A stretch of 64,000 nucleotides of DNA from Occultella glacieicola (GCF_004353825.1 NZ_SMNA01000006.1:1-64000), one strand, 5' to 3'. Positions 1-24,000 are shown, counted from the first letter of the stretch. A program made the numbers.

Positions 1-3000
1 TGCCGGTATGTTCGGTCGCCCACCACGGCCCGCCCGGCGCCGGGACTCCCGCCGCGGGGATCGGCGCCCTCGTCCGCCCCGGCGGTGCACCCGGGGCCGG
101 TGGGGGCCGCCGCGGCGACCACGCGGGAACGCGCCGTCGGCGTGTCGGTGCAACACGCCGTCGGGCTCCGGGCACCCACGCCCGACCCCGGCGGTGACGC
201 GGGCGACCTGGCCGACGCGATCGCCGCCCTCCTCGACGACGAGGCGGACCTGCGCGGGGTGCGACGGCCATGACCGCCTCCATGCCCCTGGTGGGCGACG
301 TGCCCCTCGCGTCGGTGCAACGCATCGAACACGAGCTGGACGGCGGGTTCGAGGCGGTCGGTGTGCCCGGCCTCGACGGAGACGTGCTGCAGCGCGCCGG
401 GCGCGGCGCCCACGTGATCCGCATGAGCGGCGTGCTGGCCGGTGAGACCGCGCGGGACGACCTCGGCACCCTCCAGGGCCTGGCCGGCGCGGGCGAGGAG
501 GTCGTCTTCTCGGCCGACATCACCAGCGCCCTGGAACTCGAGCGGGTGGTCGTCGCGTATCTGCACGTGCAGGAGGTGGCCGGCACCCAGAACCTCATCG
601 GCTACGAGGTGCACCTGGTGGAGAGCCCGCCCCTGCCCCCGCCCGCCGAGGTGAGCGCGTTCGGGGGCCTCGGTGACTTCGGGCTCGGCGACCTCGGCTT
701 CGACACGGACGTGCTCGGCGACATCGCCGGTCTGGCGGGTGAGGTGGCGGGTGCCGTCGACGCCGTGATGGAGGTCGCCGACCAACTCGCCGCCCTGGCC
801 GCCCTCGGATCCATCGACGTCGGTGGCCCGCTCGCCCCGATGAGTGACGCGGTCGGTGCCCTCACCTCCGGCGCCGGCACATTCGCGACCGTGACACAGT
901 CGCTCGGCACCCTCCTCGGGGGGCCGTGATGAGCGTGTTGACGGTCGCCGCGAGCGCCACGGTCGGCAGCCTGAGCTACGCCTCGAACATCTCCTCGGTC
1001 CGGGTGGACCTCGCGCTCGCCCCCGGAGTGGCCAGCGCACTGCTGGTGCTGCCCCGGGACCTGCGCGTCGAGGCCGAGCCGGGCGAGGACGTCGAGATCG
1101 CCCTCCGCGGCGAGGGCGAGGATGAGGTGCGCGTGTTCACGGGCACCGTGCAGGCCGTGCGGCGCTCGCTCGGCGAGGTCACCGTGATCTGCGGCGACGC
1201 TGCGGCCGCGCTCGCCGGGATCCGCACCGGTGCCACCTTCGAGCAGCAGTCGGCCGGCGCGATCGTGCGGGCCCTGATCCGGGAGGCGGGCGCGCGGGCC
1301 GGTACGGTCGACCTGGACCTCGACCTGGTCACCTACGTGGCTCATCAGGGCCGGACCGCACTCGAGCATGTCGCCACCCTCGCGGGCTGGGCGGGCGCCA
1401 TCGCCTCGTCGAACCCCGACGGCGGCCTGGACGTGCTGCGGTTCCCGTCACCGCCGGCCGACGTGGCGCTTCGCTACGGCCGGGAGATCGCCGAACTCAC
1501 CCTGACCGCCGGGCAACGGTCGGCCGACGTGGCCCTGGCCGGTTCCGGGCCGGCCGGGAGCACGTCCGCACCGGGTGCCCGCCGGCAGAGCACCGGCGTG
1601 GTGCCGAGCGACGCCGCCGGTCCGGACGCGACCACTGTGCGCGAGGCGGCCCCGGCCCTGCGCACGCCGACGGCCGTGAGCGGGGCCACCCGGGCCCGGA
1701 ACGCTCGCAACGGCGCGCCCCGGCTCACGGGCGGGTGCTGGCTGGTGCCCGGACTGCGGGCCGGCACCACCGTGGAGATCGCGGACGCACCACGACCGGG
1801 AGCGGCCGGACCGTGGCTGCTGACCCGGGTGCAGCACCGGGTCGGCCCGGGCGCCCGCGGGCTCACCCGGTTCGAGGGGATCGGCCTCGCGGCCACCGGC
1901 GGTGGAGCGCTCGGAGCCCTGCTCGGCGCCGCCGGCGACGCATTCGGGGGACTGCCGTGAGCTCGGCCCTGTTCGACTCGGTGACCCGGATCGCCCGGCA
2001 CGAGGTATCCGCGCGCCCGGCGGTGGCGATCGGCGTGGTCCGCGACGTGTTCGACGGCTCGGGCGCCCCACCGGACCACGCCGTGACCGTGGAACTGCGG
2101 GAGAGCGGACTCGTGCTGCCCGAGGTGACCATCGCCGTCGGAGCGCTCGGGGTCGCGGCCACCCCCGAACCCGGGGACCTCGTCGTCGTCGTGTTCGCCG
2201 ACGGTGACGTGCACGCCCCGGTGGTGGTGGGCCGGCTCTACCACGCCGACCTCGCTCCACCCGAGCACGGCGCCGGGGATCTCGTGCTCCGGCTGCCCGC
2301 CGGTTCCTCCGACCCCAACTTCCAGTTCGTGCTCCGCGGCGGCGATCCGAAACTCACGATCGGGCTCGGCCCCGACGTCCGGCTCGAGGCGGACGACGCC
2401 ATGGTGCACCTGGTGGTCGGCGACGCCGAGGCGAAACTCGAGGCGGCCGGCGGCGGCCGGGCCGAGATCATCGTCGGCGACGCGACCATCACCCTGACCG
2501 GTCGGGGCGACCTGGAACTGAGGACAACCGGAAAGCTCACGCTGCAGGGTGCGGACGTGGAGGTCAAGGGTGACTCCTCGGTGACCATCTCGGCGCCACA
2601 GGTGAAGGTGAACTGACATGGGCAGCCCCGCGGCGAACGGCGACTCGACGGTCCAGGGCGTGGACATCCATATCGTCATGGTGCCCTCACCCGGCGGTCC
2701 GATCCCGACCCCGCTGCCGCACCCGTTCTCCGGGACGATGTCCTCGGGTCTCGTCTCCAGCGTGCTGATCGCCGGGGCACCCGCCGCGGTGGTCGGCTCC
2801 GTCGCCGCCAACAAGCCGGCGCACGTGGCGACCCCGCCCGGGACCTCCTTCCAGAGCCCGCCCAAGGACCAGGGAAAGGTGTCGACGGGCAGCCGGAGCG
2901 TGACGATCGGTGGCCAGGGCGCCGCCCGGGCCGGGGACCCGGTCGAGACCTGCAACGACCCCGCCGACGCACCGGTCTCGGTGATCGTCGCCTCCACGTC

Positions 3001-21000: not shown

Positions 21001-24000
21001 CGTCGCCGGGCGCCGGGCGGTGCCCGAGCAGGTGGTGGTGCCCGTGACCGTCCGGTTCGGCACCGGCACCGGCACGGTGGACCGCACGTTCGACGTCACG
21101 GTCAACCCGAACTTCACGATCGACAAGGCCCCCGCCGTCGCGGCCTACGAGGCGACCCCGGCCGCGCCTCTGGTCCTGACCGTGACCGGGGCGACCGGGG
21201 CGTTGTCCGTGGCGAACGAGCCGCCGGCCGACTCCCGCACGGTCGTCACCATCACCGGGACCACGGTCACGGTCACCGTCCAGGGGCCCGGTCCCCGGGC
21301 GGACACCGCCTACGACCTGGTACTCGAGGACGGCAACCAGCGCCTCGGCATCCGCCGGATCACGCTCAAGGGCACCTGGACCACCGTGCGCCTGCACACG
21401 AAGGTGCTCACCGAGCCGGATGTCGACGTCGACACCGCGATCGAGGCGATGCGGGAGGTCTACGAGAGCGTGGGCGTCGCCGTCGTGCACGTCTCCACGG
21501 AGGAGCTCACCCTGCCCGCACTGAACGACGTCGACGTCGGCACGTGCGTGACGGGGGTGACGACCGCCGAGCAGAACACGCTCTTCGCGAACCGCAACAG
21601 TGCCCTGGCCAGCGACGTCGTCGTCTACTTCGTCCGTTCGACGGTCCCGCCGCTCAACGGCTGCGCCGCACACCCGCCGGGCCGGCCGGGTGCGGTCGTC
21701 GCGCGGGGCGCCACCCGGTGGACCCTCGGGCACGAGGTGGGACACGTGCTCGGGCTCGCGCACGTCGACCCGACCGACCGGCTGATGACCGGCGGCGGCA
21801 CGTCGAACATCACGAACCCGCCCCCGGACCTGACCGCCGCCGAGACGGCCACGATGTTCACCAGTCCCTTCACCAACTGAGTAGGCTCGAGATGACCGTC
21901 ACGATGCAGGACGTCCGCCGGATCCTCGACCCGGAGGAGCCCAGGTACGACCGGATCCCGGCCCTCGGACCGCAGGCCCTGCCCCACCTGCGCGAACTCG
22001 CCGCCGGCGACGACCCGATGCTCGCCTCCAAGGCCGTCTTCGCCGCCAGCATGCTCGAGGGTGCCACCGGTGCCCCGGTGGTCGACGCGGGTGCCCACCA
22101 CGAGGACCCGATCGTCCGGGTCGCCGCTGCCGCAGCGACCCAGAATCTCCCGGCCGAGGAAGCCGGGGCGGTGCTGCGCGACCTCGTCGGCGACGACGAC
22201 TCCGGCGTGCGCAAGGTCGCCCTCGCGTCGGCTCCCCGACCGGACCCCGGCCCATCCGTCAGCGCCTGATGTGGTGTGGGTCCTGCCCTCCGGTTCCGGC
22301 CGTCCGTCCGGTCCTGACGGCGTAGCCTGGGGTGGTGCCACGCAGTGCCGTGCGGCATGCCCGTCGTGCCCTGACCGACCGTGGGAGCGCGCGCCGAGCC
22401 ACGCTCCTGCTGGTGTCCTGCGAGAGCGTCGTCGGCGCCTGTGTCCTCGTGCTCGCGCTGGCCGGCCTCGGTCTGCTCCAGCGCGGCCCGTCGTGGTCCA
22501 CGCCGACGTCGGGGGAGTTGTCCTCGGCGTTCGGGCCACGGGCCGACCCGTTCACCGGCGTCCCCGGCCTGCACGCCGGGCAGGACATCCGCAACGACTG
22601 TGGGACTGCGGTGTTCGCCGCGGCGGACGGCGTGGTGCGTTACGCGGCACCTGGCCCGTACCAGGGCCGGACCGGCAACCAGATCGTCATCGACCACTCA
22701 GGCGGCATCAGCACGCGGTACGGCCACGTCCTCACCGGAACTATGGTGGTCGAAGCAGGGGATCGGGTCACCGCCGGGTCACAGATCGCGCAGATGGGTG
22801 GCGACCAGGACCTGGACCCGATCGGCGCCGGCAACAGCACCGGCTGTCACCTGCACTTCGAGGTAAACATCGACGACGAGCCGGTCGATCCGCTCGCGTA
22901 CCTGCTCACGCTGGGCGTGACGATCGCGGCCGAGCCCTGAGGCAGCACCCCGGCGACGCGCCGGTGCCTGACGCGAACAGGCCCGTCCGGAACGTTCCGA
23001 ACGGGCCTGCATCCTCTGGGTGGGCGATACTGGGATCGAACCAGTGACCTCTTCCGTGTCAGGGAAGCGCGCTACCGCTGCGCCAATCGCCCGGGCTGCG
23101 AGGTGGGTACGGGATTCGAACCCGTGTATACGGCTTTGCAGGCCGCTGCCTCGCCTCTCGGCCAACCCACCGGTGGTACGTGCTGGGACCCACCGGAGTG
23201 GTGCCTCCGAGCGGACGACGGGACTCGAACCCGCGACCCTCACCTTGGCAAGGTGATGCTCTACCAACTGAGCCACGTCCGCATGCTCGCATTGTGCCAC
23301 CGAAGTGGTTTCTGCGTGCGTCGGAGACTCTAACCCAGTCTCGTGGCGAACGTCCAACTCGCCCCACCTGGGTAGCGTGTGACCGTGACCACACCGCCGC
23401 CCCCGCCCGATCGGGGCCGGGCCTGGTTCCGCGGAGTCCGTGCCCGGGACGTCGTCGACTACGCCGATCTGGCCCGGGAGCCGGAGGCGCTGGCCGCCGG
23501 CGGCTGGTGGGTGGTGGTCGCCGAGTTCGAGGGCCCGGTGCACGCCTGGCGCTTCGGCGACGTGCACCGAACCGGTGCCGCCGACGCGGTGGTGCGCGAG
23601 GCTCCGCCGTGGCGGGGACCGGCCCCGGGGCGCTGGCGCACCAGCATGTCGCGGGAGGAGTACGTCGGCGCCGTCGAGGCGGTCCGCTCCGCCGTCCTCG
23701 AGGGCGAGGTCTATCAGGCGAACATCTGCCGGGTGCTGTCCGCGCCCCTGACGGGGCCGCAACCGTCGCCCGCGGTGCCCGACGGCGGTGGCTGGCGTCC
23801 GGATGCCGCCGCCCTCGCCGTACGCCTCGCCACGGGCAATCCCGCGCCGTACGCGGCGCTCGTGGACGTTCCGGCGGCACCCGAGTGGCCGGGCAGCTGG
23901 GTGGTCAGCGCCTCCCCGGAGCTGTCCGTGCGGGTGCGCGACGGGTACGTCACGTCCGGGCCGATCAAGGGCACCGCGGTCACGGCCGACGGGCTCGGCG

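Follow-up and report, generated by a model that had tools for sequence, protein, structure and literature searches.

A conserved contractile-tail gene cluster with a fixed mini-Rhs/zincin protein and no in-locus AAA+ ATPase in Occultella glacieicola and bacteria of eleven phyla

We propose that an operon at a contig end of Occultella glacieicola encodes a contractile injection particle that forms a separate lineage, stands alone, is used once and receives its cargo as it is assembled, without loading by an AAA ATPase; we rate this reading slightly better than even (about 0.5). At the level of sequence, the operon's genes for sheath, tube, hub, spike, PAAR and wedge form a set that is complete and conserved, and they are joined by two fixed companions. 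One is a 1,101-aa helical protein that looks like a tape measure, and the other is a giant mini-Rhs/zincin protein that is protease-like and probably self-cleaving. The window, by which we mean the whole 64,000-nucleotide stretch analysed, holds most of this operon (Table 1).

The operon has 18 genes, and on the window's contig (C20) all of its ORFs lie on the plus strand with a GC3 of about 0.9 or more. The survey's finding had counted 17 genes, omitting the DUF6046-like gene. Its assignment of a sheath (564 aa), a tube (126 aa) and a cut gene to the minus strand of a second contig (C5) is borne out, as are its family matches (Phage_GPD 9e-7, Phage_base_V 1e-5, PAAR 2e-7, Sheath_initiator 8e-3, RHS_repeat 1e-10). 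The ends of C5 and C20 do not overlap in sequence; the union of the two halves as one operon is supported by a complete congener, in which about 30 bp separate the two outer flanks, next to a tRNA-Val. The island is bounded by an empty site in genome G451, and no att-like repeats of 8 bp or more occur at its ends.

Table 1. Features of the operon and its island in the window, with the part on contig C5.
Feature	Position	Strand	Remarks
Sheath, tube, 5' part of gene 3	G000:C5:3-2955	-	
3' end of cut gene (gene 3)	1..273	+	matched by the gene 3 C-motif HMM at E 1e-9
DUF6046-like protein, probable tube initiator	270..929	+	Pfam 5.7e-3; 49/49 loci; role from position
Baseplate hub (gpD/gp27-like)	929..1960	+	Phage_GPD 9e-7, VgrG_rel 7e-7
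Central spike (gpV/gp5 OB domain)	1957..2616	+	family matches
PAAR spike tip	2618..3016	+	PF05488 2e-7; 45/49 loci
gp25-like sheath initiator	3023..3613	+	phrog_975 6e-15, phrog_43 7e-7
Baseplate J/gp6-like wedge	3610..5349	+	phrog_6 6e-35 (PHROG baseplate wedge)
Second wedge protein (gpI/gp7-like by position only)	5346..6617	+	no family match; 49/49 loci
167-aa protein, baseplate periphery per earlier fold prediction	6671..7174	+	phrog_5417 (unknown function) 3e-14
318-aa conserved protein, putatively fibre- or arm-like	7212..8168	+	no family; dN/dS 0.03-0.08, three pairs
508-aa coiled-coil-rich protein	8165..9691	+	N-terminal 213 aa conserved
Putative tail terminator/cap, not Pvc16_N	9710..10612	+	earlier fold prediction
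538-aa beta-rich protein	10612..12228	+	49/49 loci
1101-aa all-helical protein, tape-measure-like	12232..15537	+	23-residue Pro-punctuated amphipathic repeats, near-constant length
Giant Rhs-like protein, 2110 aa, whole	15548..21880	+	antisense shadow on the minus strand, an ORF of equal length (GC1 0.93)
Mini-Rhs (aa 1-515), closing end of Rhs barrel	15548..17092	+	autoprotease aspartate motifs D466, D512
Conserved cargo (aa 516-1944)	17093..21379	+	hydrophobic helices, long beta-domain insert, HExxHxxQ aa 1255, EQ aa 1421, beta-rich end
Appended HExxHxxGxxH metallopeptidase tip (aa 1945-2110)	21380..21880	+	particular to the window's genome; weak M7/M10/snapalysin matches
HEAT-repeat protein, candidate immunity for tip	21892..22269	+	HEAT_2 8e-7
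M23 peptidase	22332..22940	+	within island, not conserved together with operon
tRNA-Val(GAC)	23019..23092	-	3' end toward island boundary, about 22970

The sheath, hub/spike (VgrG-like), gp25 and baseplate J genes are clustered, and the tube was called from its size, position and weak matches. It has no match to Phage_T4_gp19, reaches Phage_tube_2 only at E 0.089, and shows no clear match to the tubes on C11, where the same genome also carries a canonical eCIS. Counting against our reading, 31 of 32 tube-family members match a PHROG labelled 'major head protein'. The sheath profile finds nothing in the PDB at E 1, its score against the canonical eCIS sheath of its own genome is only 8 bits, and the protein has no match in phage and plasmid records. 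One of the four loci without the PAAR gene has a DUF4280 PAAR-like gene directly 3' of the Rhs-like gene. The cap, by the earlier fold prediction, may have a fold related to that of the Afp16/DUF4255 terminator (PF14065), a family found in 0/50 loci; its profile has no PDB match and cannot be aligned to the Pvc16 of C11, and only marginal PHROG matches appear, in 2 of 31 family members.

The helical protein is present in all 49 loci, where relatives of 1,042-1,127 aa retain the 23-residue period at about 20% identity. Against a tape-measure role, its structural matches to tape measures reach a TM of only 0.04-0.08. For this protein the ESM Atlas returns unnamed clusters only. Gene 3 occupies the usual site of chaperone, tape measure or plug genes. 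From that position, it could be the ruler instead of the helical protein. In relatives it spans 346-612 aa, with a conserved N-domain, a variable Pro/Ala-rich linker and a conserved C-terminal helix; the ORF is present in most loci, and the N-domain HMM, which recovers it on whole frames in only 7 of 49, is unreliable. Its C-motif scores E 0.43 against a 686-aa protein of locus L080 and does not match a 1,129-aa protein on C11, and its likeness to both is one of position and pattern only.

The Rhs-like gene is, as the survey had it, a fixed component, found like the helical gene in 49/49 loci. Its Rhs part is only about 310-530 aa long, a third to half of a solved shell (1,021-1,084 residues); its last residue falls at aa 310-379 among main-clade members and at 432-599 among those of the window's subclade. 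Both autoprotease aspartate motifs, which by analogy we take to be catalytic, occur with DPxG in 46 of 47 members. DPxG is followed by a motif-conserved part of 1,300-1,900 aa, in which HExxH and a later EQ are invariant (47/47) and HExxHxxQ recurs in 68 of 68 database matches. This HExxH…E zincin motif resembles DUF4157: hhalign pairs its helix with that family at 87.6% over 17 columns (control segments below 0.2%), a likeness to half of the profile; for the 'AFT' strand, a separate element, the figure is only 1.1%. The zincin-region profile finds nothing in the PDB under E 0.1, and its ESM Atlas leads (0.80-0.83) include eCIS_core as the nearest named family at 0.80, which is chance level. 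VIA-align of the beta insert, run with a 1,191-aa model too large for testing single domains, gives only background-level matches (Z under about 8) and lists no zincin.

In common with T6SS Rhs effectors and the TcC component of Tc toxins (8QJB, 7Q97, 4IGL), the protein has the YD-repeat sheet, the Rhs-core fold (Z 10.8, rmsd 4.2, 188 aligned) and the DPxG autoprotease motifs. An HExxHxxQ…E peptidase placed behind RHS repeats also has a precedent, in the RHS plus PVC-metallopeptidase toxins described in PMC3482391. Unlike such toxins, however, it retains only the last stretch of the barrel, is not fused to PAAR, lacks a TcB-like partner in the operon, carries a cargo of 1,300-1,900 aa whose peptidase motifs are split by large inserts, and is fixed in a tail operon, as a rule with no cognate immunity gene.

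Extra enzyme tips (phospholipase D, tyrosinase, hydrolase or peptidase) are a minority feature, seen in 9 of the 68 database matches; the other 59 have no appended enzyme, and no immunity gene is conserved downstream of the Rhs-like gene. In another genome (G650), an FG-GAP-like repeat protein ends in a stretch with 69% identity to the window's own peptidase tip, and the HEAT gene is 48% identical to the gene that follows there, tip and HEAT gene having moved jointly onto another carrier. The two are a mobile cassette. The survey had listed the HEAT gene as an operon member, but it travels with the tip and not with the machine, and is absent from related loci (0/49).

All 49 extended loci, which come from 11 phylum-level groups with both monoderm and diderm hosts, share one gene order and the same boundaries. 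The horizontal spread that the survey inferred is upheld, although not its restriction to Actinomycetota. Scans that used only two short patterns each recovered 143 sheath relatives from species-representative genomes and 302 from metagenome contigs. Selection is purifying in each of the 25 gene pairs for which dN/dS was computed (0.00-0.57). Broken copies are few (3/49 Rhs-like ORFs, 3/49 helical ORFs, and one locus, L075, with sheath and tube only), and HMM misses among the 49 loci (hub 3, cap 1) are contradicted by tblastn matches. RNA-library contigs on one locus (L037) are short and shallow, cover the operon no more often than its flanks, and are therefore uninformative on expression. Regulators of the BTAD, LuxR and sigma-54 types lie adjacent to loci.

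No AAA+ ATPase is encoded within the locus (PF22977 in 0/50 loci, Walker A in 0/19 query proteins), as previously claimed, and no conserved AAA loader was found in the flanks. The related claim that eCIS markers are missing is right for in-locus Pvc16 and the eCIS ATPase, but PF13699 exceeds its cut-off on the Rhs-like gene in 5 of 50 carrier genomes, through the second half of the profile only. Elsewhere in the carriers, and never in the locus, PF22977 occurs in 16/50 and Pvc16_N in 19/50; 25/50 have only this sheath. Supply of an ATPase in trans from a second eCIS was rejected as a general rule, because 34 of the 50 carriers, many of them incomplete MAGs, have no PF22977; the complete M. senegalense chromosome (G417), with one sheath, lacks it too. 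An unrelated ATPase may act in trans. Head genes are absent from the locus, in keeping with the survey. Among 159 flanking ORFs of 90-800 aa, each no more than 2.5 kb from one of 46 loci (a range leaving out ORFs under 90 aa, such as small holins), there is no head, terminase or integrase family and no conserved lysis or export gene. Neither TssJLM nor ClpV occurs in the operon or scanned flanks, and no operon protein is a membrane-adaptor candidate, their hydrophobic segments being only marginal (1.7-1.8).

With eCIS (Afp, PVC, AlgoCIS; dbeCIS lineages I and II, PMC6899500), the cluster has in common a headless stand-alone tail with sheath, tube, hub/spike, PAAR, gp25 and baseplate J, no membrane complex in the operon or scanned flanks, a patchy cross-phylum spread and the DUF4157-like HExxHxxQ…E motif. 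It differs in having no in-locus Afp15 ATPase or Pvc16_N, separate hub and spike genes, a distinct sheath, and the obligatory giant and helical proteins. In PMC13277306, a Streptomyces tape-measure-like protein is paired with a DUF4157 protein that binds a tube initiator. The Streptomyces SLP proteins Sle1/Sle2, as described there, likewise place a tape-measure-like helical protein beside a DUF4157-type core, but within a canonical eCIS, with a variable C-terminus on the helical protein and a small DUF4157 partner; in the present cluster the helical protein does not vary, and it is the 2,000-aa mini-Rhs protein that bears the optional tip. In line with the new lineage that the survey proposed, the cluster was not found in the eCIS tables checked, by way of one carrier strain: Humitalea rosea DSM 24525 scores 0 in eCIStem despite carrying the cluster (L072, L113), a check that leaves out the listed Mycobacterium and Cellulomonas loci. 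No description of the cluster was found in the literature covered, which excludes subscription papers.

A less probable reading, though one to be taken seriously, is a killer resembling an R-type tailocin, in which the tube depolarises the target and the Rhs-like protein stays on the baseplate as a giant receptor-binding fibre or enzymatic tailspike that grips and cuts the surface. R-type tailocins (R-pyocin, diffocin) are ATPase-free, with separate hub and spike and a tape measure, and the cluster matches them in the first two traits and probably in the third. A cargo too large for tube or cage and made mostly of beta-domains also suits a fibre, as do the insert's weak matches to tailspike and tail folds (Z 6.2-7.7, within background) and the absence of a tip or immunity gene from most members. 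However, conserved autoprotease motifs followed by hydrophobic helices tell against it, and a fibre should be swapped rapidly with host, whereas the catalytic motifs are invariant over 11 phyla. The cluster also departs from tailocins in its PAAR gene, its large enzymatic cargo, the lack of a conserved lysis cassette among the scanned flanking ORFs and the lack of any phage relative by tblastn.

Improbable, in our judgement, is a cytoplasmic machine acting on the producer's own membrane in stress response, regulated death or development, as for the Streptomyces CIS, the precedent given in PMC13277306. The adjoining regulators and the absence of conserved lysis, export or immunity genes from the scanned flanks are consistent with this, but the lack of a membrane-adaptor candidate, the large beta-rich cargo with tyrosinase or phospholipase tips suited to an outside target, and the occurrence in both monoderm and diderm hosts argue against it. 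The survey's version, a full Rhs cage enclosing a polymorphic toxin tip, is largely refuted and retains very little credit: RHS repeats, the Rhs-core fold and variable tips in a minority are real, but the shell is partial, the part beyond the cleavage site runs to 1,300-1,900 aa, most members are tipless and a TcB-like partner is missing. A decaying prophage tail module, to which the tRNA-side island and the few broken copies might point, is hardly credible given constant boundaries and order, purifying selection, the absence of head, terminase and integrase families from the 159 flanking ORFs, and a single distant IMG/VR match with none in phage or plasmid records.

In the stand-alone particle that we favour, the helical protein would lie in the tube as tape measure and be ejected into the target membrane, and the giant protein would remain outside the tube, docked to baseplate or spike, with its DUF4157-like core or Rhs bowl as the probable point of contact. 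The mini-Rhs would cleave itself after DPxG, freeing a fragment that begins with hydrophobic helices and holds the zinc protease site, and whose end may serve as a slot for an occasional extra enzyme. The target is most likely the envelope of another microbe. That most members have neither tip nor immunity gene would also fit a structural or adhesive role.

We tentatively speculate, with less confidence than in the particle itself, that free contractile machines include, in addition to eCIS and R-tailocins, a third broad class to which the cluster belongs. In this class, a domesticated Rhs toxin would serve outside the tube as a payload rack that is obligatory and cleaves itself. It would deliver a protein of at least 150 kDa and accept whole enzymes at its end; loading would not be driven by ATP, and the tube would set no limit on size. 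Surveys key on DUF4255, T4 gp19 tubes or the AAA ATPase, and the lineage has therefore apparently been missed. Because some carriers are in culture (Cellulomonas uda, Humitalea rosea, Paracoccus ravus), the cargo question is testable now. With this family one can ask directly how a contractile machine that has no loader carries cargo exceeding the size of its tube, and the family is also an example of an Rhs toxin that has become a fixed component of a machine.

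The operon is a run of tightly packed plus-strand genes extending from the start of the window to position 22269, and family scans match a hub, a spike, a PAAR protein, gp25 and baseplate J among them. The survey's finding of an operon is confirmed, but its 17 genes become 18, as a DUF6046-like gene had been missed. On the minus strand, the start of contig C5 carries the sheath gene, the tube gene and the 5′ part of gene 3, which is cut by the contig end. Sequence overlap between the ends of C5 and C20 (the contig of the window) is absent. That one operon is split over both, as had been proposed, is upheld by a complete congener (G451), in which the outer flanks of the two contigs adjoin in the orientation that the join predicts. 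The gap between these flanks is ~30 bp in G451, ~60 bp in genome G452 and 6.5 kb in genome G453. A single insert of ~27 kb, sited at the tRNA-Val 3′ end, therefore holds the operon together with a C5 peptidase gene and an M23 gene. Two other hosts have tRNA genes 27 and 39 bp past the Rhs-like gene. No sheath match turned up in the 40 relatives searched, three congeners among them.

Locations of the features discussed (window positions unless a contig, genome or locus in another genome is named)
Feature	Location	Strand	Remarks
Gene 3, 3′ end	1-273	+	
DUF6046-like gene	270-929		
Helical protein	12232-15537	+	1101 aa
Rhs-like protein	15548-21880	+	2110 aa; GC3 0.93
Rejected ORF over Rhs-like gene	15431-21763	-	2110 aa; antisense shadow by codon pattern
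HEAT gene	21892-22269	+	
tRNA cluster	23019-24669		tRNA-Val, -Cys, -Gly, second tRNA-Val; different inserts at and near this site in congeners
Flank on C20	22971-24671		G451: 2908153-2909861
Flank on C5	C5:3814-6000		G451: 2909892-2912082
Canonical eCIS, same genome	C11:171000-187200		L007, L008; Pvc16, WHD-AAA ATPase, DUF4157, sheath, two tubes, 1,129-aa Pro/Ala-rich protein, VgrG, baseplate genes
Tip and HEAT homologues	L239:1026-2748		genome G650
Sister lineage	L080:161-10576		IMG/VR; low GC; many sheath clusters at similar distance exist
PpoB2 copper-chaperone gene	L082:3252-4046, L085:14195-14992		3′ of Rhs-like gene in the tyrosinase-tip locus and in one mycobacterial locus lacking such a tip
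DUF4280 PAAR-like gene	L127:15680-16123		directly 3′ of Rhs-like gene; locus without usual PAAR gene
90-aa gene	L021, L052, L059: ~9706-9978		Acidobacteriota; between sigma-54 activator and sheath; DUF3467-like in 2/3

The sheath search returned 499 protein matches, 143 confirmed stretches on genome contigs (71 given as loci), 302 stretches in metagenomes and one distant match in IMG/VR; phage and plasmid records gave none. Fifty loci, those on the longest contigs, were chosen, and 49 were extended, the exception being L075, a locus in an alphaproteobacterial MAG with sheath and tube and without the remaining operon. Gene order is the same in all 49 extended loci, every one of which has the helical and Rhs-like genes; PAAR is present in 45 and the HEAT gene in none. 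A sheath tree from a quick search, with 49 rows (the genome under study plus 48 loci), covers 11 phylum-level groups and requires 17 changes of label, the lowest possible number being 10. A constraint uniting the 19 actinomycete rows, a group picked after the tree was seen, was rejected (p-AU 0.0016). Further, rough dN/dS was 0.00-0.57 in all 25 gene pairs with values, of 27 tried.

The evidence consists of gene content, conservation, motifs and absences, and we put the probability that the operon encodes an injector at roughly 0.52. Its particle would assemble around a tape measure, with the giant Rhs-like protein docked on the baseplate and probably cleaving itself, and contraction would then lead to delivery. 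A tailocin with a giant enzymatic fibre is the strongest competitor, though we think it rather unlikely, and a self-acting cytoplasmic machine is more doubtful still. Pfam found no conserved lysis or immunity gene among 159 ORFs (90-800 aa) lying up to 2.5 kb from 46 loci, a set in which activators of the BTAD, LuxR and sigma-54 kinds occur repeatedly. Upstream of the operon we found regulators only, and no conserved structural genes.

The Rhs-like ORF exceeds 1,600 aa in 46/49 loci. HExxH and a subsequent EQ are kept without exception in 47/47 proteins (46 locus proteins and that of O. glacieicola), and HExxHxxQ occurs in all 68 database matches; the available text of PMC3482391 gives HExxHxxQ-E as the PVC metallopeptidase signature, also known after RHS repeats. 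PF13699 (DUF4157) matches the gene above cut-off in 5/50 genomes, by the profile's second half only. By hhalign against DUF4157, the HExxH helix scores 87.6% and an AFT-like strand ~640 residues upstream 1.1%; we infer that both segments join in one active site. A DPxG-type motif begins at aa 310-379 in members of the main clade, at aa 432-599 in those of the O. glacieicola subclade, and two aspartate motifs are both retained in 46/47. The AlphaFold model of aa 290-1480 (pLDDT 69, pTM 0.55) aligns to just the last ~260 residues of solved Rhs shells (Z 10.8), whose modelled chains have 1,021-1,084 residues. This match indicates that the modelled Rhs part forms no cage but only the end that closes a barrel, which leaves no way to enclose the 1,300-1,900 residues past the cut. 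The Rhs cage toxin proposed earlier is highly improbable.

Appended tips among the 68 database matches comprise seven phospholipases D, one tyrosinase and one second metallopeptidase (the O. glacieicola protein). The other 59 have none, and tips sit past the conserved beta-rich end rather than past DPxG, so a polymorphic toxin tip is not the usual feature that the survey took it for. Among the 46 locus proteins, two carry an added enzyme, in one case a tyrosinase (5e-31) and in the other an alpha/beta hydrolase (2e-5); nine of the 46 were scanned with Pfam and the others judged by their ends. The O. glacieicola tip occurs in one other genome (G650) of 400 searched, 69% identical, where it ends an FG-GAP-like repeat protein and the next gene is a HEAT gene, with 48% identity. 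Tip and HEAT thus form a mobile pair, which suggests a toxin with its immunity protein; the G650 pair is possibly an undescribed toxin-immunity cassette.

The 126-aa protein right after the sheath is read as a putative tube because of its size and its position directly 3′ of that gene. Its family matches a minor-tail family in 14 members and phrog_9206, labelled 'major head protein', in 31/32 (57 of 501 profile positions in one member shown). The latter match counts against a headless injector. A prophage relic is the least credible reading; the Pfam scan of the 159 ORFs flanking 46 loci found no capsid, terminase or integrase.

Gene 3 (346-612 aa) joins a conserved N-domain, through a Pro/Ala linker, to a last helix that is conserved as well. 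In the sister lineage L080, whose sheath is 41% identical, two genes take its place after the tube, one chaperone-like (122 aa) and one of 686 aa. The helical protein (47 sequences, ~20% identity across phyla) spans 1,042-1,127 aa, a spread (SD 16) conditional on starts picked within 1,030-1,130 aa and three broken ORFs dropped; the starts are backed by a conserved N-terminal motif. It has a 23-residue period in hydrophobicity and in proline, with z-scores inflated by sequence relatedness. Its model is all helix (pLDDT 78, pTM 0.42), and its viral fold matches include several tape measures at TM < 0.1. Either gene could encode the ruler; we favour the helical gene because its length is constant.

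The canonical eCIS on C11 raises the possibility of an ATPase acting in trans. Among the 50 carriers, many of them MAGs, the eCIS-ATPase marker PF22977 occurs in 16 and the terminator marker Pvc16_N in 19, always outside the operon locus; in 25, only one sheath match was found. Cultured carriers with no second sheath match include Cellulomonas uda NBRC 3747, Humitalea rosea DSM 24525 and Paracoccus ravus YJ057. Neither marker is present on the complete chromosome of M. senegalense. In Streptomyces, according to the available text of PMC13277306, the tube initiator and a tape-measure-like effector each co-elute with a DUF4157 protein, which by analogy makes co-assembly without an ATPase plausible.

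In the accessible part of PMC6899500 (dbeCIS), Afp15 and Afp16 belong to eight parts found in over 85% of loci; neither was found in the present operon. The eCIStem search used Pfam markers such as DUF4255 (PMC8213781, in part). Humitalea rosea DSM 24525 carries the cluster, yet stands at 0 in the portion of the eCIStem genome table available (one strain). M. senegalense and M. conceptionense are at 0 there as well, through other strains, which may or may not carry the cluster. The available portions of eCIStem and PMC12923769 list Mycobacterium and Cellulomonas loci, which may or may not be of the present type. The accessible dbeCIS supplements name no carrier among four terms as an eCIS host, the available texts of PMC8651086, PMC9230969, PMC12923769 and PMC8894135 do not describe the cluster, and literature searches found no description.

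This lineage of contractile injection system is real, maintained and widespread, and apparently undescribed. It probably works in the manner of an eCIS, but two defining eCIS features were not found in it. What is unusual is its mini-Rhs/zincin carrier, which is a fixed component and has a slot for an optional enzyme.
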